Positions 2,132 through 17,166 of a stretch of DNA of 64,000 nt are shown here, in pieces; position 1 is the first letter of the stretch; every line of letters begins with the position of its first letter. Made by a program: the position numbers and the translations under genes. A model generated the notes under the pieces. It saw only the letters and a list, made by a program, of their open reading frames with translations. It did no database searches and was not told the origin of the DNA. Where the stretch lies: the NCBI GenBank assembly GCA_031385045.1, contig JANNBC010000028.1, positions 1 to 64,000 of the forward strand. Reading direction: 5' to 3'. Source of the DNA: a bacterium. Lineage in GTDB: Bacteria; Bdellovibrionota_C; UBA2361; CALJRW01.

Positions 2132-3169
2132 ATGTCAGCAGATAGTACGGAATTAACTTTTATTAGATGTTCATCTTGTCGCAGTCTTGTACCAGCAATG
2201 TCTACTCGTTGTAGGATGTGTGGTGCTGATTTACAGGCTAAGAAAGCTGCACCAGTTCCGGAGCCAGTTGCGCCAAGTGAAAAAATTGAAATCAAGAAGC
2301 CAGTAATGCTGGCAACGACTGAGCTAGATCCGCTTAATGAATTCTTAAGCGAAGATGATCAGTTTGACGATGTTGATATTGCAGATGATCAATTAGCGAC
2401 TCTTGATCAGGAAATCCCGGAAGAGCTTCATGCAGAAAGTACATCTGAATATACCGAGGATTTCGAAGATGATTTTGATGAAGAACAAGCAATTAAAGAA
2501 TTAGATAGTTTGTTGGAAGAATTAAATGCTACTTCGGCATCTTCTTATGTGGCACCAGTTGAACCAGTCATTGTGCCTGAAGTAAAACCGATAGAAGCAA
2601 AACCGATGGCAGTGCCTAAGCCTGAGATTAAGGTCGAGCCAGTCGTTGTCGCTCCTAAGGTTGTTATTCCTAAAGTTGTCACTCCGGTGAATGAACAGAA
2701 TTTAATTAACAAATCCCAACCAATAGTTCCTAGTAAGGTGGAGATTAAAGAGGAGAAAGTTATGGAGAAAGAAGTAAGAGCAGTAGAAAACAAGGTAACT
2801 TCAATTAAGTCAGCTTCCCTTAAGCAGACTGAAAAGCAGACCGCCCTTTTTGGTTGGTTTGTGAGTTACCAAGAAGCAGAAGGCGTTTCCAGAGAGATTC
2901 GCGAAGGTAAATTCTTTGTGACAGCAAAGAGTCTTAAGCCTAACGATCTGATTATTGAAGATGAGAGTGTTTCAACACCCCATGCCATGATTACTGTTAG
3001 TCATGAACTAGGTTTCCAAATTCAAGATTTAATGAGTGAGCATGGACTATATATCAAGAAACATGGCACTAAGAAGTATGAAGTGATTGATGATATTGAA
3101 GTTGTTGAAAATGGTGATTGGATTAGATTCGGTAATGTTGAGTTTATGGTTGTGATTATGCCAGTTTGA
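2132..3169 (+). CDS. Zn-ribbon / acidic and Pro-rich linker / C-terminal FHA protein
   Basis: N-terminal CSSC..CRMC, D/E-rich then P/V/K-rich linker, C-terminal FHA-like domain (GWFV..VSTPHA..QDLMSEHG..GDWIRFG). Confidence 0.8.
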   Translation: MSADSTELTFIRCSSCRSLVPAMSTRCRMCGADLQAKKAAPVPEPVAPSEKIEIKKPVMLATTELDPLNEFLSEDDQFDDVDIADDQLATLDQEIPEELHAESTSEYTEDFEDDFDEEQAIKELDSLLEELNATSASSYVAPVEPVIVPEVKPIEAKPMAVPKPEIKVEPVVVAPKVVIPKVVTPVNEQNLINKSQPIVPSKVEIKEEKVMEKEVRAVENKVTSIKSASLKQTEKQTALFGWFVSYQEAEGVSREIREGKFFVTAKSLKPNDLIIEDESVSTPHAMITVSHELGFQIQDLMSEHGLYIKKHGTKKYEVIDDIEVVENGDWIRFGNVEFMVVIMPV

Positions 3170-3319: not shown

Positions 3320-4162
3320 ATGAAAATAGTTAAACTCACTTTTTTATTATTAATCTTAATCTGCACAAGTAGTTGTCGCGATGTTCAAGTCGCTGAAAAT
3401 ATCAATCAATATCAAGCCCATCAGATTATCAATAAACTAAGTTCTTCGGGGATTGACTCCAAATATTTTGCCAATAGCAATGGTAAGTCTTATTCTGTCT
3501 CAGTTGCTCAGCGAGATTATTTACCAGCTGTTAGTATTATTGCCGTCTCTGGTATTCTTCCCAAAGTTGATTCTGATTTTAAAGAATTAACCGAACCCAA
3601 GGGGTTTTTATCTAGTAATAAATCTTTTGACCTCTTAAGATTAGACCGAGCTATTGCAGTTGAGCTAGAAGATGCTTTGCTTGGTGTCCCAAGTATTACG
3701 AATGCTAAAGTTGTTGTGCGACTCAATAGTTTACCAGCTAATCAAGTCCCCTCTGTTTCGATTGTTGCTGGTACTCGTGATCAGCAAGCGGATCTTGGTT
3801 ATATTACAGATTTAGTTAAGAATTCTATTCCAGGTATTCAGGAGGAGCATATTAAATTGATTTTAGAGCGAGTCCCAGATGCTGGTTCTGATTTTTCAAT
3901 GATTGGTACAATTCAAGAAAAGGGGAAGATGTTGGCAATTCCGCTAGTCCCATTTTTAATTTGGCAAGTTCCTTCGGGGGTTGAGCTAGAATTAGCTTGG
4001 GCTTCAATCGCCATTTTGGTGATTGCTCTGCTTGTTGGATACTTTTTGGCAACAATTTTCCGGAAACCTAAATTAAGGGAGCGGAATTCACTAAGCTTAC
4101 CAGAGTCTAACTCTTTAGCTTTGGGACTTCCAAAAGATTTAAATGAGGAGGATTATCGATGA
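3320..4162 (+). CDS. sctJ: T3SS inner-membrane ring lipoprotein SctJ (YscJ/PrgK-like), divergent
   Basis: Lipoprotein signal ending TSSC, YscJ-like segments (QAHQIINKLSSSGI; RAIAVELEDALLGVPSITNAKVVV), C-terminal TM followed by basic residues. Confidence 0.8.
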   Translation: MKIVKLTFLLLILICTSSCRDVQVAENINQYQAHQIINKLSSSGIDSKYFANSNGKSYSVSVAQRDYLPAVSIIAVSGILPKVDSDFKELTEPKGFLSSNKSFDLLRLDRAIAVELEDALLGVPSITNAKVVVRLNSLPANQVPSVSIVAGTRDQQADLGYITDLVKNSIPGIQEEHIKLILERVPDAGSDFSMIGTIQEKGKMLAIPLVPFLIWQVPSGVELELAWASIAILVIALLVGYFLATIFRKPKLRERNSLSLPESNSLALGLPKDLNEEDYR

Positions 4163-4404
4163 GCCAAGAGAATCAAGGTAATATCTTCAATAAATTAGAG
4201 CCAGAGCAACAAGCACTGGTGGCAATAGCTGTTTTATTAGATGGTTTTGATAGTCCTTTTTTTCTAGGAGATGATTTTTCGCATCAAGATCAATTACGTC
4301 TAGCCGCTGAGGAGATTGTGAAGGATGCTCCCCAGCAACGCTTGCCCTACGTCGCAACCTTACTTCGTCGAGCATTAAATGAGCTGAGGAACCAAGATGA
4401 GTAA
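4159..4404 (+). CDS. Small helical protein at the SctK/FliG position
   Basis: 81 aa, RBS gaggag, ATGA overlap with sctJ, overlaps the next gene; weak likeness to the FliG N-terminus. Confidence 0.55.
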   Translation: MSQENQGNIFNKLEPEQQALVAIAVLLDGFDSPFFLGDDFSHQDQLRLAAEEIVKDAPQQRLPYVATLLRRALNELRNQDE

Positions 4405-5392
4405 TGAATGGCAATTAGCGGAAGAAGTTGAATCACTAGATCCTAAGATTATTAAATATGGTATTGGGTTTCTTAACTCTCGTCCACAAAATTGGATTCC
4501 TAATTTCTCTTCCTTTTGGACTCCGTTATTGGAATTATTAAACTTTGAAGTTGCTGTTTTAGATATACAACCAACCTTTGATTTTCCAATAAGTGGGAAT
4601 AGCTTGTGGTTGGGTGCTTTTGAAAATAATAAAATAGGGGTTAGTTGTGAGCCATTTGTCGCCAAGTATTTAGCAAGTCTTTTTATTACAGATATTGATT
4701 CTCTGACTAGTAAGGTTCTAGAAGATTATTTAGCAAGGCGCTTAATGCAGTCGTTAGTTGCTTCTTGGACAGGCCCATCGCTTAGTCACTTTCAGTATTT
4801 CGGTGCAAGTTCAATGAAAGACTTTGAACCTAGTGCCGGCATTAAAATTACTATGTCTGTTAATGGTCGCCAAGTTACACTCTGGTTATTGATCGAGGAA
4901 CTTTTACTAAAGAAATTAGATAATTTGTGGAGAAGACAGACCACAACATTTAATATTAAGAAATTAGAATCCCGAAGATATCAATTAGTACTCTATAGCC
5001 AACAAATTCAACTGGAGGAGTTAGAAACCTCATTGGTTATTGGTAATAAGATTTATCTAGCTGGGTTAGATCCAAGGTTTGTTACTATGCGTGATATTGT
5101 TAATGACTCGACTTGGAAAATAAAGCTCTATAGTAGTAGTGATCAGCTAGTCATGAAGATCCTTGAGTCTAACGTTCCTTATCAGCTAGACGTAAGAGAC
5201 CTATTAATGCGGGTCACATTTCCAGAAATTACACTTAGTACTGAGCAGTTACAGTTAAATACTAATGAATCCTTTATCTCTACAGGACTTGCTCCGGGTA
5301 CAGAATTATTGATTAAAGTCTCCGATGAGACCGTTGCCCAGGCAAAGCTCGGAAAGGATGCTAATGGTTATTTTGCTCAAATCCTAAATTAA
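4397..5392 (+). CDS. sctQ: SctQ/FliM-like C-ring/sorting-platform protein, divergent
   Basis: FliM-middle-like helix (VLEDYLARRLMQSLVASW) and two degenerate SpoA repeats (QIQLEELETSLVIGNKI; EITLSTEQL..GTELLIKVSDETVAQAKL..GYFAQI); lies directly upstream of sctR. Confidence 0.65.
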   Translation: MSNEWQLAEEVESLDPKIIKYGIGFLNSRPQNWIPNFSSFWTPLLELLNFEVAVLDIQPTFDFPISGNSLWLGAFENNKIGVSCEPFVAKYLASLFITDIDSLTSKVLEDYLARRLMQSLVASWTGPSLSHFQYFGASSMKDFEPSAGIKITMSVNGRQVTLWLLIEELLLKKLDNLWRRQTTTFNIKKLESRRYQLVLYSQQIQLEELETSLVIGNKIYLAGLDPRFVTMRDIVNDSTWKIKLYSSSDQLVMKILESNVPYQLDVRDLLMRVTFPEITLSTEQLQLNTNESFISTGLAPGTELLIKVSDETVAQAKLGKDANGYFAQILN

Positions 5393-5453: not shown

Positions 5454-6026
5454 ATGGTAGAATTAGTAATTATAATGTTGGTTTCCAGTGCCTTTGTTAA
5501 ATTGGTCACAACACTCAGTATTTTTCAGTATGGATTAGGTCTTAAGAACTTCTCCTTTAGTGTTGTAGTATTCTTACTTAGCTTAGTCTTGACATTATTT
5601 GTGATGCAGCCAACTTGGGATCAGCTTGGCGGTTGGCAGGGAATTAGTCAGGCCAGTCCAGAAAAGATTGCGAGTTTTCAAACTCAAATTGACCCTTTTG
5701 TTCAAAAGCATAGTGATCCAGAAAGCCTTAGCCGTTTAAAGGATATTTATCAAAAAAGTCATCCAGAAGTTTCTTTAGATATCATTCCATGGTCAGTCAA
5801 AATTACCGCATTTATGACTACGGAGTTAAAAGAGGCCTTTTACATTGGATTACTACTAATTATTCCTTTTGTTTTTTTAGATCTGTTAGTTGTTAACATT
5901 TTGATGGCTTTAAACATTACTCAAATTTCAGCTCTAACAGTTGCTTTACCATTTAAGTTGTTAATCTTTTATCTATTTGACGGTTGGCAACTATTAACCG
6001 AAAAATTATTAAGTTTTTATTATTAA
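5454..6026 (+). CDS. sctR: T3SS export gate protein SctR/FliP, divergent and N-terminally shortened
   Basis: SAFVKL..GLG..LTLFVMQP; AF..ELKEAFYIG..PFVFLDLLV.NILMAL; LPFKLLIF..DGW. Confidence 0.9.
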   Translation: MVELVIIMLVSSAFVKLVTTLSIFQYGLGLKNFSFSVVVFLLSLVLTLFVMQPTWDQLGGWQGISQASPEKIASFQTQIDPFVQKHSDPESLSRLKDIYQKSHPEVSLDIIPWSVKITAFMTTELKEAFYIGLLLIIPFVFLDLLVVNILMALNITQISALTVALPFKLLIFYLFDGWQLLTEKLLSFYY

Positions 6027-6030
6027 TATT

Positions 6031-6279
6031 ATGTCTCCAGACTTATTAATTGAATCAATCCTTTACGCAGTTCGCTTATTTTTATTAGTTACAATTCCGT
6101 TATTGTTAGCTTTGACGCTGGCCGGGACATTTTCGGGAATGTTACAAGCGATTACGGGGATTAGGGAAAGCCTGATTAACTATTTTGTAAAGTTAATTGC
6201 CTTGTTTTCTATCTTATATTTCTTTTTACCTAGTCTGATTCAAAGTCTGCAAGAAATATTTAATAATTACTATTTATGA
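6031..6279 (+). CDS. sctS: T3SS export gate protein SctS/FliQ
   Basis: 82 aa, two hydrophobic helices, IPLL..G..GMLQAITGIRE..FVKLIA. Confidence 0.8.
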   Translation: MSPDLLIESILYAVRLFLLVTIPLLLALTLAGTFSGMLQAITGIRESLINYFVKLIALFSILYFFLPSLIQSLQEIFNNYYL

Positions 6280-6851
6280 TTTCATGTGTGCTTGCTGGTT
6301 TCCTGTTTTATCTCTGGGGACGTTCTGGAGTTTTAACCGGCATTTTATTTCTTCTTGGGCTTTTAATTTATTTCACGCAAGAACTTGGACTTAACTTAGG
6401 TTTTGTTTCCGAAATTCTTTTAGTTTGTTCAGTCTTAGCCTTGCCACTTAGCTTTTATATTGCGGGATCTTTATTAGATAATTTCATAGCAGAGAGGTTT
6501 TCTAAGCAATTACCATTAGCATTAATTTTTTTACTTTTTGGATTATACATAATTATAGAGCAGGGGATATTCTTTGATCAGTTAGAATATTCAGTTAAAT
6601 TGATTAGCAATCCAAGCTCACTAAGCCCTTTGTTTTTATTATTAGAAATACTCACTAAAACAATTATGACAACAACCGGTGTTGTGCTCACAATAATGTT
6701 TGTTGCTTTATGTTTTATCTTGCCGTTTGCCTGGTTTGCAAAAAATTCGCGATTAAATCTGAGTTGGGCAGTTCCTAGTATCACTCTTGTCTTGGTTTTA
6801 TTTTTAATCTCCAGCAGTTATCAATTAATTTTAACAAAGCTATTTGCTTAG
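6276..6851 (+). CDS. sctT: T3SS export gate protein SctT/FliR, shortened
   Basis: Polytopic membrane protein with IAGSLLDN matching the AG..ID motif; sits between sctS and sctU; ATGA overlap. Confidence 0.6.
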   Translation: MISCVLAGFLFYLWGRSGVLTGILFLLGLLIYFTQELGLNLGFVSEILLVCSVLALPLSFYIAGSLLDNFIAERFSKQLPLALIFLLFGLYIIIEQGIFFDQLEYSVKLISNPSSLSPLFLLLEILTKTIMTTTGVVLTIMFVALCFILPFAWFAKNSRLNLSWAVPSITLVLVLFLISSSYQLILTKLFA

Positions 6852-7526
6852 ATGAGTTTTAGTTTTCCAAGTCAAAAAAAATTGGCCATGCTTCGAAAAA
6901 ATGGGGTAGTGCCAGCTGCTCCTTGGATTGGACGCCTATTGGTTCTTTTTGGTTTAGGAGCTTATTTTTATTTCTCAGCTGAAAAATTACTTGCCCAGCT
7001 ATTAGCTTATTACCAAGGCCTTTTTGCTTCTGTAGTTCAACCAGAAACTTACCAAGTCTTATTTTTTACCCTGATTAAGGATTTTATTATAGTCCCAGTA
7101 TTACTTTGTTTGGTACTGATCTTTTTGGGTGTTTTAATTCAGACTAGATTTTACTTTAGTTTTGATAACCTTCGACTAGATTTTACAAGATTTGGACTTA
7201 CTGCTCAGTTGCAGACAATTCAACCTATTAAAAAGATCTTATTTTTCTTAGCACTACCCATATTGCTAGCGATTGGATTTATTTTGTCACTTCGCTGGGC
7301 GGATGTATTTATGGCTAGTGTCTCTTGGGTTGCGACTGAGCGACGAACAGCTTATTTGGAGTTGTTTAAATCAATTGCTAGTCAAATAGCTGTTGTTGCG
7401 TTATTATTAATGATCTTAGCAGTGTTACTTAATTGGTTTTATTTCCGATTGGAGCACAGTCAGAATGATCATGACTCGCTTGATGCTGATTCAGCAAGCC
7501 ATAATTCGATTGATAGTATTAGATAA
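6852..7526 (+). CDS. sctU: SctU/FlhB transmembrane domain only (no cytoplasmic NPTH domain)
   Basis: PSQKKLAMLRKNGVV resembles PTPKKLRDARKKGQV, LIQTRFYFSFDNLRLDF resembles LQ.GFLFS.EAL.PDF; four TMs; ends at 224 aa. Confidence 0.75.
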   Translation: MSFSFPSQKKLAMLRKNGVVPAAPWIGRLLVLFGLGAYFYFSAEKLLAQLLAYYQGLFASVVQPETYQVLFFTLIKDFIIVPVLLCLVLIFLGVLIQTRFYFSFDNLRLDFTRFGLTAQLQTIQPIKKILFFLALPILLAIGFILSLRWADVFMASVSWVATERRTAYLELFKSIASQIAVVALLLMILAVLLNWFYFRLEHSQNDHDSLDADSASHNSIDSIR

Positions 7527-7768
7527 TGCCATATCCTAAAAAAGATTTAATTTCTCAAGCACCCTTATTCCTTCTATTGCCGGAGCGACGTTCTTTAGAT
7601 GGTTTTGAGAAGTATCTTTCGGCCTTTTATTTAAGACTAGAGAAACTGAACCAGTTAGAGCAAGAGGGAAGCGATCTATCTACTGAAAATCAAGCCGAGT
7701 TAGCTATGTTAAGGCAAGTTGTTGATTGGTTGACGCTTCATTCCGAAATTGAAGGAAACAGGAATTAA
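7526..7768 (+). CDS. Small hypothetical protein (possible SctX-like)
   Basis: TAATG coupling with sctU; amphipathic C-terminal helix ELAMLRQVVDWL; precedes the TPR gene. Confidence 0.5.
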   Translation: MPYPKKDLISQAPLFLLLPERRSLDGFEKYLSAFYLRLEKLNQLEQEGSDLSTENQAELAMLRQVVDWLTLHSEIEGNRN

Positions 7769-7774
7769 AAACTC

Positions 7775-8203
7775 ATGAGCTTATTAGATTCAAGATTAAG
7801 TAGTTACTCGGAAGAAGAACTCGACTTATTATATTCTTTAGGGGTTTTTTATCTTGAGGCGGGACATTATCGTTCGTCCGAAATGATTTTCCAAGGACTA
7901 ACTGTTGTGGCCCCCGGCTTTTCTGATTCTTGGCTCGCTGCCGCAGCAACATTTTTTATGTTAGGTAACTTTGATCAAGCTAGGAGATATGCACATCAAG
8001 CAATGCGTTTAACTCCTCATGCCATTCAGGTTCAATTACTATATGTAACAATTTTACTTTCTCAAAATGAACTTTCCGAGGCAGGTACTTTGTTAGGGGA
8101 AATTAAAGAACAGATTGATACCAAATTAATTCAAAATCCCGATCAGATTCGTTATTTTCGTGCCCAGTTAGCCCGCTTTGAATTTGCTCAAAATCGTGGA
8201 TAG
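7775..8203 (+). CDS. TPR chaperone, SycD/LcrH- or SctY-like
   Basis: LDLLYSLGVFYLEAGHY..IFQGLTVVAP..WLA; about three TPR repeats. Confidence 0.75.
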   Translation: MSLLDSRLSSYSEEELDLLYSLGVFYLEAGHYRSSEMIFQGLTVVAPGFSDSWLAAAATFFMLGNFDQARRYAHQAMRLTPHAIQVQLLYVTILLSQNELSEAGTLLGEIKEQIDTKLIQNPDQIRYFRAQLARFEFAQNRG

Positions 8204-8206
8204 GCG

Positions 8207-8554
8207 TTACTCTTTTTTTGACTCCTTCTCCGGTAATTCTTGCTCTTCCAGTAATGCCGCGTCAATTGTCTGTTTCACTGCTAATTCAATTGCTTGTCGT
8301 TGAGCTTCGGGTATCTTTGAATTAGAGAATAATTTTTCAGCCTCTTGTTCTACCATCTGTAATAACTCAGCGCGCTCCTGATAAGACATCTCTCTAGTTG
8401 GCATGCGACTGGCTCCCGACACTCCGGTCACGGCACCAACTTTTGATGTTTTACTGACCTGAGAAATCGCCTCAGATTTACGAACGGAATTTAGAGCATC
8501 AGTCTTATTAATACCTTTAATTTTTTTATCGTTTGAATCAATTCCATCAACCAT
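8207..8554 (-). CDS. Hypothetical protein downstream of a sigma factor (candidate anti-sigma or secreted substrate)
   Basis: RBS ggagag; S/T/K/G-rich, probably disordered N-terminus and helical C-terminus. Confidence 0.6.
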   Translation of the reverse strand: MVDGIDSNDKKIKGINKTDALNSVRKSEAISQVSKTSKVGAVTGVSGASRMPTREMSYQERAELLQMVEQEAEKLFSNSKIPEAQRQAIELAVKQTIDAALLEEQELPEKESKKE

Positions 8555-8589: not shown

Positions 8590-9375
8590 TTAGTATTGCC
8601 CTGAAAATTCTGAGACCTTTTTCGTAAAGATTCCAAAATCTTCTTTATGAGCCATGACAACATTGGCATCTTTTAGCCCCGGTCGAATCCTTGGTGAGTC
8701 AAGCTCCTTTCCGGTGGAAACACTTTTCTGAAGGTATTCCATGATTACTTTATGTTCTCTAATTACATTAAGTTCGTCAGTGTTCCATTCTGTGGCAACG
8801 CCTCGTAATGATAATCCTTCCCAATATACTTTCCAGACAAGAAGTTGGTGAAGTGGTTCTAGATCAGAAAGATTAATAATTAATTGTTTGAACTCTGTAG
8901 CTTCTTCTGGATTAGAATCTTGAATGCCGTGTTTAGTAGAAATTAAACAAGCACTAATTAATAATTGTTGGATACCAACACGAACACCTTGTTCAGAATC
9001 ATCTTCGCTCGGCAAAATCCCCGATCTAATTTGAGGATATAATTCAAATAACTCGGCAGAAATTGCTCGCGCCAAGCGTTCTGTCCTTTTAGAATTACGA
9101 CTATCTTTCTCCCATGATTTACTATTACGAGCAGCTTCAGTAGAGGCTTCATGAATTCTTCTGCGGGCATAACTTTTAAAGGGCACTCCTAATTTGGGAT
9201 CAAATCTGCGAGCGCAAAAAATTAAAGCTTCAAATGCAGCCCCATCTAGACCGTCATCTTGCCAGTGTAAATTCCATCCTCGGGCTACAGATTTGGCAAT
9301 TTTTTCAGCCCAAATTTGATGCTCTAAGACTAACTCATTAGCTTCATCCATGCTTAAAATCGTTGTTTCGGTCAT
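8590..9375 (-). CDS. FliA/sigma28-like RNA polymerase sigma factor, divergent
   Basis: Region 2 (LDGAAFEALIFCARRFDPKLGVPFKSYARRRI) and region 4 (LEPLHQLLVWKVYWEGLSLRGVA). Confidence 0.8.
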   Translation of the reverse strand: MTETTILSMDEANELVLEHQIWAEKIAKSVARGWNLHWQDDGLDGAAFEALIFCARRFDPKLGVPFKSYARRRIHEASTEAARNSKSWEKDSRNSKRTERLARAISAELFELYPQIRSGILPSEDDSEQGVRVGIQQLLISACLISTKHGIQDSNPEEATEFKQLIINLSDLEPLHQLLVWKVYWEGLSLRGVATEWNTDELNVIREHKVIMEYLQKSVSTGKELDSPRIRPGLKDANVVMAHKEDFGIFTKKVSEFSGQY

Positions 9376-9586: not shown

Positions 9587-10372
9587 ATGTTTGTTATGAG
9601 TAATTGTCGTTCAGAAGCCGAAAAAACTAAAGGTAAAATCTATGATTTTGCAAAAATAGTTGAGCGCAAGGAGTCCATAGCGACCCACCTCAGTATCCAT
9701 GAAAAAAACGGTTTAATTATGAAAAATAGGATACAGGGCCGTAAATTAGCCTGTAGTATGCTTAGAAAATGGAACTGCCGTTTAGATTTAGAAGAAGTTG
9801 ATAGTATTGTTGATTTGTCGCTATGCGAAGCAGTGAAGTATTTTGACCCAGCAAAAGGGGTAAATTTCTTAACTTTTTTATTCTATCACCTGCGGGGAAA
9901 TTTAATTCGAACAATTAAAATCCAAGCTAATCAAACTGCAATTCCTTTGGAATTTACAGATGAAAACATGGAGAGTGGATATATTGGTCATGAGCGAATT
10001 AATACTGCCGATGCCTTTGAAACTTTTGGTACTGTACAAAAGTCTCCCGATCAACAGTTTCAAGAAGGTCAGTTTTTTGAATTAACGAAGCAAGCTTGTG
10101 AAAAATTGTCTGATCTAGAACGAGAAATTATTCGGAATGTTTTTATCCACGAAGAGCAAGTTACGCAATTAGCGCAAGATTTAAATTATAGTCGTTGTCA
10201 TATTTCTAGATTAAAAACTGCCACGATTAATAAGCTTCGCTCCGAGATTGAAAAAATTACTGGAGAAAAAATTTCCATCTCTGAAGGTCTGGAATCTCCG
10301 CGTCGAGCTTTAGATACTCGTCATCGGGTTCGTAGCTTGAAAGTTAAGAAGGTTAAGAAGATAGCGGCTTAG
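9587..10372 (+). CDS. Sigma-70 family (FliA/SigF-like group 3) sigma factor
   Basis: LSLCEAVKYFDPAKGVNFLTFLFYHLRG; LSDLEREII..VTQLAQDLNYSRCHISRL (helix-turn-helix). Confidence 0.85.
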   Translation: MFVMSNCRSEAEKTKGKIYDFAKIVERKESIATHLSIHEKNGLIMKNRIQGRKLACSMLRKWNCRLDLEEVDSIVDLSLCEAVKYFDPAKGVNFLTFLFYHLRGNLIRTIKIQANQTAIPLEFTDENMESGYIGHERINTADAFETFGTVQKSPDQQFQEGQFFELTKQACEKLSDLEREIIRNVFIHEEQVTQLAQDLNYSRCHISRLKTATINKLRSEIEKITGEKISISEGLESPRRALDTRHRVRSLKVKKVKKIAA

Positions 10373-15177: not shown

Positions 15178-17166
15178 ATGTTAGATGGTAAAATAGAAAT
15201 TAGTCCCGTCCACCAAGATTACTTAGCTGCATCGCTTGGTTTTATAGAAAAGTATTATCCAGATTTTAGTCATCAACAAAAGATTTTTTTAGTAATAGCT
15301 TGCATGGCACTGGCATTTCCTGAGCGGCGAGCAGAGCTGGCTGGCCAGCCAGATGCTTATTTAGATTTTGCCAAGGATCGTATTCAGCAGGTCCTGGTTC
15401 GTGCTCAAGCAGAAGTTGTTAAGGTAGACGAACAGCTTCTCAATAATTACTTAGCAAATTTTCAAGAAATCTTTAATGCCCGTGGACAATATTTAGATCG
15501 CAGGGAAATTATTAGAGAGTTAGTAGAAGTTGGTGTTTTAAAAGAGCAAAATGGGCAATTCTTAATTCTTGGAAAATATGCTGATGGAATAGTTCATTTT
15601 GGAGACTGTGACTTTCTTTTAGAGGCTGGAAACTTAATTACTGATATCAATAATCTTAGATCTTCAAAAATACTGAGTGTTGATTCTGATGAAAAAACTT
15701 CTAGGTTTGTGATGAAGTTTGAGCACGGAATATCGCCTGTAATTGATGGCCAGATTATTCACCAAGTAGGCCAAGTTTTTCCGGATTATTTTGTTAGTTT
15801 AGATTTTATTCATCAACACCAAATAGTTGGGATTTATCTTAATGATCAGCGATACTTTTTATTCTCTGGTGAGAAGACGCTGTTTGAGTTTGATTCTAAG
15901 CCTTATGACTTTAGTTTTTCTGAAAACTTTAGTGAGCCTACAGGATATGTACTGACTGAAAAATCAGCCTATTATTTTGTACTAGGCGAACTAAGGTTTC
16001 AAACGTCATTAGCTGACTTTAGTATTCGTACAATCAATTTCTCCTTTTGTATTTCGGAAGTGGGTAATATTGAGACTTATTTTTGGGGAACTTTAGAGAA
16101 AGAGGAAGCAACAATCCCTTTTTTACTTGCTCCAATTGAAGAGCTGACTGGCTTTGGTGCAATCAAAGATACCATCCAGTTTTTGCATTATCAGAGAGTT
16201 GGTTTTGGTAAATATCAAACAGAATCTGGGATCGTCTATTCCTTATCTGGAAAATCAATGCAAACTTTGCGTGGAGAACTAATTACAGAATTTCTACCAA
16301 ATCCAGATTTCGAACAAAGCGGTTTGGCATTGATTAGGACAACAAACTGTAGTTTTCCAATGGTCCAAGGGCAGATCTATACTAGTTTTGAGAATGCTCG
16401 CATTGAACAGTTTATTCCGCTAGAGACAAGTTTTCAGTATCGTGAGTTAACTGGTTGGCTGATAACAAATCTGGGAGTGAAATTAGTTATCGAGGGTGAG
16501 ACCTTTAATTTACCAGATGGTTTAAGCTTTTGTTACGACCCAGAAACTCCACCACAGATTTTTCTTGATCATTTCAAGCAAATCTATTTTGTAGGTCCGG
16601 TCATGAATGATCTCGGAGAGATTAATCAGTTAGTCTTAATGGCTGGGCGTGAAATTCAAATTATAGTGAGCGATCAAGGTCTCGATAGTCAGACGGTTAG
16701 TGGCTATCGTAATCTTTATGTGAATGGACATGGTGATTTTCAATGTGTCTTAGAGTTCGGTAACGCTGAAAGAATTTTTTCGGGAGAGAGAAAAGGAGAC
16801 ACTTATGAGGTTTCGCTTGGAAAATTTGATGCCGCTAAGTTGACTTTGGTTGGATTTAATATCTTTGGTGAGTATATTGCCGATGGCAAGCTCCACCCAT
16901 TTTTAGGTCAAGAAATGCTTGCGAGAATGGTAGGTGTTGAGGTTGATCAAGTAGCAATTATTGATGAGAATACGCACGTGACACTGTTTCATTCCAAGGC
17001 TCATTCCCAAGGTTTGGTTATCGGGGACAAAATTCATTTTGAAGGTGAGCAATTTCGAGAACTAGAACTTTCTAGTTCTGAAAAGGGAGATACGACTAGG
17101 GTTGATTTTGGTTTTTGCAGGAAGAATATCAAGCATCAATACGGTTTTACGTTATATTATAGTTAG
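15178..17166 (+). CDS. Hypothetical protein with degenerate beta-rich repeats
   Basis: 662-aa ORF with recurring P/L-V-I-x-G-Q/E units. Confidence 0.65.
   Translation: MLDGKIEISPVHQDYLAASLGFIEKYYPDFSHQQKIFLVIACMALAFPERRAELAGQPDAYLDFAKDRIQQVLVRAQAEVVKVDEQLLNNYLANFQEIFNARGQYLDRREIIRELVEVGVLKEQNGQFLILGKYADGIVHFGDCDFLLEAGNLITDINNLRSSKILSVDSDEKTSRFVMKFEHGISPVIDGQIIHQVGQVFPDYFVSLDFIHQHQIVGIYLNDQRYFLFSGEKTLFEFDSKPYDFSFSENFSEPTGYVLTEKSAYYFVLGELRFQTSLADFSIRTINFSFCISEVGNIETYFWGTLEKEEATIPFLLAPIEELTGFGAIKDTIQFLHYQRVGFGKYQTESGIVYSLSGKSMQTLRGELITEFLPNPDFEQSGLALIRTTNCSFPMVQGQIYTSFENARIEQFIPLETSFQYRELTGWLITNLGVKLVIEGETFNLPDGLSFCYDPETPPQIFLDHFKQIYFVGPVMNDLGEINQLVLMAGREIQIIVSDQGLDSQTVSGYRNLYVNGHGDFQCVLEFGNAERIFSGERKGDTYEVSLGKFDAAKLTLVGFNIFGEYIADGKLHPFLGQEMLARMVGVEVDQVAIIDENTHVTLFHSKAHSQGLVIGDKIHFEGEQFRELELSSSEKGDTTRVDFGFCRKNIKHQYGFTLYYS

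Follow-up and report, generated by a model that had tools for sequence, protein, structure and literature searches.

The short sctU gene at positions 6852-7526

The window analysed here is a stretch of 64,000 nucleotides on contig C8 of the draft genome of an uncultured sediment bacterium (2.83 Mb, 61 contigs, 37% G+C, rated 95% complete). Its element of interest is an open reading frame (ORF) at 6852-7526 on the forward strand, which encodes a short SctU/FlhB, a type III export-gate protein of 224 amino acids (aa), with an N-terminal motif, four membrane helices, the second and third of which are joined by a conserved loop, and a tail of 25 residues. The TAG stop of the preceding ORF (6849-6851) directly abuts its ATG, and its own TAA stop (7524-7526) shares one base with the next ATG (7526-7528), giving the TAATG at 7524-7528 that had been pointed out in a sequence-only reading of this DNA. 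The gene is a real, conserved variant, an export-gate protein reduced to its membrane domain, and belongs to a needle-less type III core that is probably linked to a Tad operon.

In Pfam, the protein was matched by PF01312 (FlhB/HrpN/YscU/SpaS) at E 9.7e-14, residues 6-205 being aligned with positions 7-207 of a 335-position profile, and the score of 51.8 bits passes the gathering threshold of 24.4. In NCBIfam, the profile for non-flagellar SctU, TIGR01404 (E 1.9e-11, profile positions 6-206 of 341), outranked that for flagellar FlhB, TIGR00328 (E 2.2e-8), with neither equivalog cut-off being reached (44 bits vs 358 and 33.7 vs 349, respectively). A profile of 24 short homologues aligned with chain residues 8-232 of 383 of solved FlhB (E 3.6e-15) and with residues 1-218 of 342 of a SpaS/SctU structure (E 4.9e-11). 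The short SctU covers the membrane half of the SctU/FlhB family only. An AlphaFold model built on the 24-sequence alignment (predicted local distance difference test, pLDDT, 84) contains four long helices forming two hairpins, followed by a short tail helix, with low confidence in the loop between the hairpins (residues 98-123).

Behind helix 4, the chain runs on for about 25 residues to the stop, with the acidic, Ser-rich tail RLEHSQNDHDSLDADSASHNSIDSIR, in agreement with what had been read from the letters. The NP[TSE]H motif, likewise reported missing, was absent from the protein in a motif check and was found in 0/20 orthologous ORFs. For the C-terminal domain, consisting of the CN and CC segments, neither the protein nor the downstream frames gave a match past PF01312 position 207, and a six-frame PF01312 search of the whole genome returned nothing beyond that position near sctU. 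Across the 24 short proteins, which have a mean column identity of 33%, the near-invariant columns are L14, R15, G18 and S23 in the N-terminal motif, Q97 and F100 at the start of the loop, and F198; the best-conserved columns form the motif K-L..L-R..G-x-x-P-x-S and the block G-L-x-Q-T-R-F-L-F-R...F-D..R-L, and in the comparison of the profile with the PDB this motif and the helix 2-3 loop block align to the same segments of FlhB. All 24 proteins stop 8-25 residues past an HRMTRxE-like motif behind helix 4.

An assembly error does not account for the short length. The stop/start junction is covered by contigs of three runs (X4, 7429-7722; X3, 7457-7607; X2, 7499-7714), all of low depth and from a study other than the likely source study, with 0 differing letters and 0 gaps, and the orthologue from the same genus (48% identity) is also 224 aa long and ends on the identical residues IDSIR. 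A sequencing error at the stop, the possibility raised at the outset, is thus contradicted.

Orthologous loci were found in 20 genomes of the same GTDB phylum, one locus in each. All 19 complete ORFs among them end 1-10 residues after the membrane-domain profile, at lengths of 208-237 aa or, in one case with an N-terminal extension, 284 aa; the twentieth locus is cut by a contig end. A scan of 124 species genomes of the phylum with the 24-sequence profile (E<=1e-22) gave 60 matches in 47 genomes, of which 40 are short (open frames <=270 aa), 18 are 360-391 aa long and 2 are unclear (284 and 295 aa); the 40 include genome G057, shown to be short separately, and five that are cut at contig ends. 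Relatives therefore share the short form, in 18 families of the phylum, contrary to the other objection foreseen in the sequence-only reading, a full SctU in relatives, and the short homologues have intact frames at 16-48% identity to the window protein. When 1.84 billion representatives were searched exhaustively with this one protein as the query, 11 matches had E<=1e-3, nine of them short (200-257 aa, including the window protein and the 224-aa orthologue) and two of full length. Word-indexed homologue searches, which are insensitive for so divergent a family, gave 2 and 10 matches, and a search with a two-sequence alignment gave one true relative and a weak, partial match from Chitinophagaceae (33% identity, residues 9-79). 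Where the sources name short SctU proteins, they call them 'hypothetical protein'.

A further 20 loci of the family comprise 8 long, 9 split-type and 3 short copies. The long copies (361-374 aa) have NPxH near residue 271 in 8/8 cases and are flagellar; the one in genome G056 has a flagellar-type FlhA gene at a distance of about 0.5 kb, and the same genome encodes FliI together with FliH, FliJ, FliF, FliE and a rod protein in one operon. The nine split-type copies (252-281 aa) end 35-54 residues past helix 4, at the strand preceding NPTH. When the membrane domains (42 rows) were placed in a maximum-likelihood tree, the flagellar clade received a support of 100/100, and the 19 short proteins of the order grouped at 90/86. 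All 22 short rows fell on one side of a branch with 77/43, present in 76% of the bootstrap trees, and the short rows grouped with 6/10 split rows at 96/88, apart from the flagellar clade. By these groupings, in which the full-length flagellar FlhB of the same genomes stands apart, the short SctU goes back to an old paralogue of non-flagellar type rather than to a truncation of recent date.

Neighbouring genes and other machine parts

The gene that overlaps the sctU stop (7526-7768, forward strand) encodes a conserved protein of 80 aa with a predicted disordered N-terminus and helical hairpin, and lies 3' of sctU in 17/18 of the relatives' loci, within 225 nt in 16 of them and at 449 nt in one. 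Its 18 orthologues have a mean column identity of 49%, compared to 33% for SctU, and share an N-terminal PFSxSPLLALLP-like motif. The protein had no family match and no sequence match in the PDB, and none to FlhB or SctX. Its AlphaFold model (pLDDT 73) has helices at 27-46 and 53-79 and no strands, and a structure search with this model yielded only non-specific helical hairpins, with 7QIJ among the weak matches (E 4.9, not significant). By its predicted fold the 80-aa protein is not a substitute for FlhB-C, because it is modelled as all-helical, whereas FlhB-C has an alpha/beta fold.

It is followed by the gene for a type III secretion chaperone-like TPR protein of 142 aa (7775-8203, forward strand), which is matched by Pfam TPR families and, below threshold, by LcrH_SycD (E 6.5e-9) and SctY (NF052415; E 1.7e-7, 31.7 bits vs a cut-off of 70). 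An ORF stands behind the 80-aa ORF in 16/18 of the relatives' loci, 15 of them coding for 139-156 aa and one for 163 aa. The sequence-only reading, in which the downstream ORFs did not resemble FlhB-C, therefore holds for both genes. A complex of the 80-aa and TPR proteins was predicted with a score of 0.79, the best of 3 controls scoring 0.19; the mark set for this score is reached by 116/157 solved complexes and by 2/215 mismatched pairs. Between the runs, at least 82% of the contacts recur, and the partners have a pLDDT of at least 75. The prediction supports binding of the 80-aa protein to the TPR protein, and the score may in part reflect likeness to known pairs, because TPR chaperone complexes have been solved. 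The two proteins could form a SctX/SctY-like pair, or a small exported or structural subunit with its chaperone.

The genes upstream of sctU, all on the forward strand, begin with an FHA-FHA protein of 489 aa at 422-1891 (FHA, E 2e-23; Yop-YscD_cpl, E 9.6e-13), which resembles the cytoplasmic part of SctD, has its sole membrane helix at the extreme C-terminus, is without the periplasmic ring-forming domain, and has an orthologue at the same position in G056. A second FHA protein at 2132-3169 (345 aa; Pfam FHA, E 2e-6) has a Cys-rich N-terminus, an acidic, Pro-rich linker and a C-terminal FHA domain, and has a paralogue, likewise an FHA protein, encoded on contig C7 with the Tad-SctV genes (E 1e-13, 32% identity along 130 aa). 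The inner-membrane ring lipoprotein SctJ (3320-4162, 280 aa) was matched by PF01514 (E 1.1e-8) and, under the curated cut-off, by TIGR02544 (E 4.5e-17). A protein of 81 aa at 4159-4404 had no Pfam or NCBIfam match and has a 76-aa ORF as its counterpart at the same position in G056. The next gene (4397-5392, 331 aa) is SctQ-like by position: the window protein had no Pfam match, and a profile search for FliMN_C found none in this genome, while the 342-aa proteins at the SctQ position in G056 and G062 match FliMN_C (E 2.6e-6 and E 7.5e-6, respectively). SctR/FliP (5454-6026, 190 aa; PF00813, E 2.5e-36; NCBIfam EscR/YscR/HrcR, E 9.2e-35) and SctS/FliQ (6031-6279, 82 aa; PF01313, E 4.3e-9) are clear.

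At the position of SctT stands a polytopic membrane protein of 191 aa (6276-6851), conserved in the relatives (185-230 aa). It had no match to SctT in Pfam (E<=5), in NCBIfam, in the ESM Atlas or in BLAST against the SctT of contig C13, and hhalign, comparing 14 of its orthologues with 7 SctT sequences, gave a probability of 0.5%. Either SctT has diverged to an extreme degree here, or another protein has taken its place. For the core SctRSTUV, SctR and SctS are thus clear, the protein at the SctT position is unrecognisable, and SctV is found twice elsewhere in the genome.

Behind the TPR gene, on the reverse strand, lie an ORF for 115 aa (8207-8554) without a significant family match and, at 8590-9375, the gene for a sigma-70-family factor of 261 aa (TIGR02937, E 4.7e-10; TIGR02479 FliA_WhiG, E 5.5e-7, under the cut-off), which the 115-aa ORF directly follows. 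A second sigma-70-family factor of 261 aa is encoded on the forward strand at 9587-10372 (Pfam Sigma70_r4 and r2; TIGR02937, E 2.2e-16), so that two sigma-70-family genes with weak FliA/WhiG likeness border the locus. In G056 a sigma gene also stands beside the locus and is followed by a 117-aa ORF. The 115-aa product could be a candidate anti-sigma factor, which raises the idea of an FlgM-like regulation coupled to export. From the first FHA gene to the TPR gene, the order FHA-FHA-SctJ-small-SctQ-R-S-x-U(short)-small-TPR is kept whole in G056, a genome from a different family within the order. G062 represents a third family; there the part SctR-S-x-U(short)-small-TPR is kept, with SctJ, the small ORF and SctQ further off behind unrelated genes.

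A second gate is encoded on contig C13 (15472-21126), with SctR, SctS and SctT, all matched in Pfam, and a 245-aa split SctU that retains the CN segment, which pairs with CC, and breaks off exactly where NPTH would stand. It is followed by a gene for a 1022-aa PAS/GAF histidine kinase and by an FlhB-CC-like ORF of 86 aa at 15472-15732 (TIGR00789, E 1.9e-6, under the curated cut-off, and E 2.9e-7 in a second scan). A stand-alone FlhB-C, the piece that the sequence-only reading had thought worth seeking, does therefore exist in the genome, but it belongs to the second gate and is not evidence of a partner for the short SctU, because the gate in front of it is a different one, with an SctU of its own that extends as far as the NPTH position. 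Another FlhB-C-like signal, at C56:12430-12543 (PF01312, E 0.46; TIGR00789, E 0.024), is not significant and lies inside a 327-aa ORF of another kind.

Neither of the two SctV genes of the genome lies in the window locus. One, of full length (693 aa, best match SctV, cytoplasmic domain kept), is located within a Tad operon on contig C7 (10296-21288) with the order TadZ-CpaB/RcpC-CpaF-TadB-TadC-SctV-kinase-like (about 800 aa); the genes located just upstream of this Tad-SctV order code for a PP2C phosphatase, an FHA protein and a Ser/Thr kinase. The Tad-SctV order is common to this genome, G056 and G057, which represent three families of the order. The other SctV (C38:45265-47106, 613 aa) has a profile match that skips FHIPEP positions of about 300-461, which form part of the cytoplasmic domain, and its counterparts in the relatives are likewise 611-629 aa long; it adjoins a second SctJ, a sigma factor and a TPR protein, and the C13 gate has no adjoining SctJ. 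G057 has a short SctU, no split form among its matches, and as SctVs only a flagellar-type and the Tad-linked one. By elimination, the C38 SctV would pair with the C13 gate, and the likely partner of the short-SctU gate is the full-length SctV of the Tad operon on C7.

Neither the needle protein SctF (PF09392) nor rod and hook proteins (PF00460, Flg_bb_rod) gave a Pfam match in the 95%-complete genome, which fits the suggestion, made from the letters alone, of a machine that builds no needle or hook; the 80-aa hairpin could still be an exported or structural subunit. The two secretins of the genome are GspD in a type II secretion system operon and an orphan on contig C45, with none in the locus. 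Matches to ATP-synt_ab were confined to F1 alpha and F1 beta in the ATP synthase operon and one 419-aa frame, and tblastn with SctN and FliI of G056 found nothing beyond these three. A match to T3SS_ATPase_C on contig C11 (E 6e-4), considered as a type III ATPase, is F1 beta in the ATP synthase operon. A type III ATPase was also undetected in genome G041 of the same genus, whereas G056, G036 and G062 have two FliI/SctN-type genes each; in G056 one is flagellar and the other forms a stand-alone SctL-SctN pair. By this distribution, and subject to the completeness of the genomes, the lack of an ATPase characterises this genus rather than the clade at large. In relatives from other families, a stand-alone cluster of SctL, SctN and a lytic transglycosylase was observed.

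Probable gating without a substrate switch and its alternatives

To our knowledge, every flagellum and injectisome studied depends for ordered secretion on the C-terminal domain of SctU/FlhB and on the self-cleavage of this domain. In a study on FlhB (PMC7064499), the membrane domain is described as wrapping around the FliPQR gate, with the helix 2-3 loop carrying the most conserved residues, contacting each FliQ and being needed for secretion, and with the N-terminus at the pore entrance. The same source places mutations that bypass fliHI in the FlhB N-terminus and makes the switch dependent on NPTH cleavage in the C domain.

We consider it probable that the product of 6852-7526, an intact and conserved SctU consisting of the membrane domain only, gates the SctR/SctS channel for a single class of cargo, with no substrate switch. 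Binding to the gate and the gating role are likely to be kept, because the N-terminal motif and the helix 2-3 loop are the best-conserved parts of the protein. The short SctU would assemble on the SctR/SctS channel and gate export, one substrate class would be exported without switching coupled to needle or hook length, and the autocleaving C domain, otherwise needed for passing from early to late substrates, would be dispensable here because nothing of measured length would be built, as the absences of needle, rod and hook suggest. The gate may work with a Tad-type pilus under the control of phosphorylation, in the way T3SS* works with the Kil pilus in Myxococcus.

Several points weigh against this reading. 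The 191-aa protein is unrecognisable as SctT, which leaves the make-up of the gate putative, and the pairing with the Tad-linked SctV was reached by elimination. The absence of ATPase, needle and rod derives from profile searches of a draft genome that is 95% complete, and the state without ATPase is not general to systems with a short SctU, given the non-flagellar SctL-SctN pair of G056. A single origin of the short forms is modestly supported at 77/43, with long branches, so that false joins are possible. The pair of 80-aa hairpin and TPR protein could supply a function that has been assigned to nothing. For expression, no RNA run was found that contains this DNA. Finally, Foldseek against the PDB ranked FlhB of 6S3L at the top without significance (E 1.2, TM 0.33/0.37) and found nothing at E<=0.001 for the short SctU model; here the sequence profiles were preferred over Foldseek, because the monomer model of a protein that wraps around a complex is a poor query.

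A more far-reaching version, which we put forward only tentatively and hold to be distinctly less likely than gating as such, takes the minimal gate, without switch domain, needle, rod and secretin, and in this genus also without ATPase, as a module of the Tad pilus, which would be driven by the proton-motive force, would pass one class of cargo into or alongside the pilus and would be controlled by phosphorylation. The genes for kinase, phosphatase and FHA protein by the Tad-linked SctV would fit such a module, as would the two FHA proteins that open the gate locus. If true, a second phylum would possess a hard-wired equivalent of the Kil/T3SS* apparatus that Myxococcus uses in predation, and nature would have run an experiment on the minimal needs of a type III gate.

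Among the alternatives to a gate without switching, one holds that the switch domain is supplied in trans, either by the FlhB-CC-like protein of C13 or by the 80-aa/TPR pair, docking on the short SctU. The genome does contain the 86-aa ORF; the 80-aa ORF overlaps the sctU stop, trails sctU in nearly all loci and is predicted to bind the TPR protein; and the latter is weakly SctY-like, with 7QIJ among the weak fold matches. In Yersinia, the SctY-SctX complex binds SctV. Nevertheless, the C13 piece lies in the operon of another gate, whose SctU ends at NPTH and keeps CN, whereas the short SctU is without CN, so that the known mode of docking would not be available to it; G057 has a short SctU and no split-type copy among its matches; and the 80-aa protein, predicted to be all-helical and without a match to FlhB, differs from the alpha/beta FlhB-C. 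Supply in trans is accordingly regarded as improbable.

We give the same low weight to the view that the locus no longer secretes, and that a complex resembling SctR, SctS and SctU has been reused, for example as a membrane platform or as a signalling or assembly factor of the Tad pilus, the switch having been lost together with export. The absence of a type III ATPase from this genome would suit such a use, as would the unrecognisable protein in the place of SctT, the SctD-like proteins without a periplasmic domain, the lack of a secretin in the locus and the embedding of SctV in the Tad operon. It fits poorly with the retention of SctR, SctS, SctJ, SctQ (in the relatives) and a full-length SctV with its cytoplasmic domain, and with the conservation of a chaperone-like TPR protein and a small helical client beside the gate. 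Moreover, type III export can run on the proton-motive force without the ATPase.

That the gene is a decaying remnant of a full-length sctU/flhB is very unlikely: it is shorter than any characterised family member and scores far under the NCBIfam equivalog cut-offs, but the same end point recurs in about 40 genomes of 18 families with intact frames, the N-terminal motif and the loop are conserved, and the genes remain tightly packed in the operon. A spurious stop or a frameshift, for which no supporting point was found, can practically be discounted in view of the identity of the second-study contigs across 7429-7722, the equally long orthologue of the same genus with its IDSIR end, and the lack of an FlhB-C-like frame downstream.

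The reading as a gate for one substrate class bears on how the family is understood. A widely conserved, membrane-only SctU separates two jobs, the building and gating of the channel and the switching between substrate classes, and would retain only the first of them. Three questions could be addressed in this clade: what the membrane domain achieves with its loop on its own, whether a type III gate can function with a single substrate class, and in this genus also without its ATPase, and in what way Tad pili and needle-less type III cores act together, a link known so far from Myxococcus predation alone. Annotation is affected as well, as the short SctUs score far under the NCBIfam cut-offs and are labelled 'hypothetical' where they are named at all.

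Comparison with known systems

Compared to canonical SctU/FlhB proteins (FlhB, YscU, EscU, SpaS; 6S3L), the short SctU has a homologous membrane domain with the same layout of N-terminal motif, two hairpins and loop, and its gene likewise stands behind sctR and sctS in the operon, but CN linker, NPTH site and CC subdomain are all missing. The protein thus has the membrane features of the family and neither of the two, C domain and NPTH, that make it a switch. The solved or named relatives that were found are 342-415 aa long, as opposed to 208-237 aa for the short clade. Full-text searches of the literature, supplements not covered, brought up no natural SctU/FlhB without the C domain, and no SctV in a Tad operon.

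The split SctU of contig C13 is also a non-flagellar paralogue without a covalent autocleaving C domain; it keeps CN up to NPTH and has a separate CC gene behind the histidine-kinase gene, and the short SctU has neither. The stand-alone FlhB-C homologues of TIGR00789, of the FlhX/YlqH type, show that the halves of FlhB can be encoded apart; there the C-terminal half occurs alone, whereas here it is the N-terminal membrane half, with no C-terminal piece adjoining. With SctX-SctY (YscX-YscY; 7QIJ), the locus has in common a small helical protein and a TPR protein of about 140 aa side by side near an export-gate gene; in contrast to that pair, the 80-aa protein has no sequence match to SctX, and the two genes adjoin sctU and not sctV.

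The nearest described system is the needle-less T3SS* of Myxococcus xanthus (the 'Myxo' NF-T3SS, a type III secretion system of the non-flagellar kind), to which the present one is comparable. T3SS* is without secretin, needle and translocon (PMC3459982, PMC12075869) and acts with the Tad-like Kil pilus (PMC12075869, PMC12428579). The system described here similarly has a type III core with no detectable needle or translocon and no secretin in its locus. It differs in its host phylum and in SctN, of which none was found in this genome and which is present in T3SS* (SctN-eYFP, PMC12075869); the short SctU without the C domain may be a further difference. The association with a Tad system is seen in Myxococcus as co-localisation of T3SS*, and here, from genes alone, as the linkage of SctV inside the Tad operon in three genomes.

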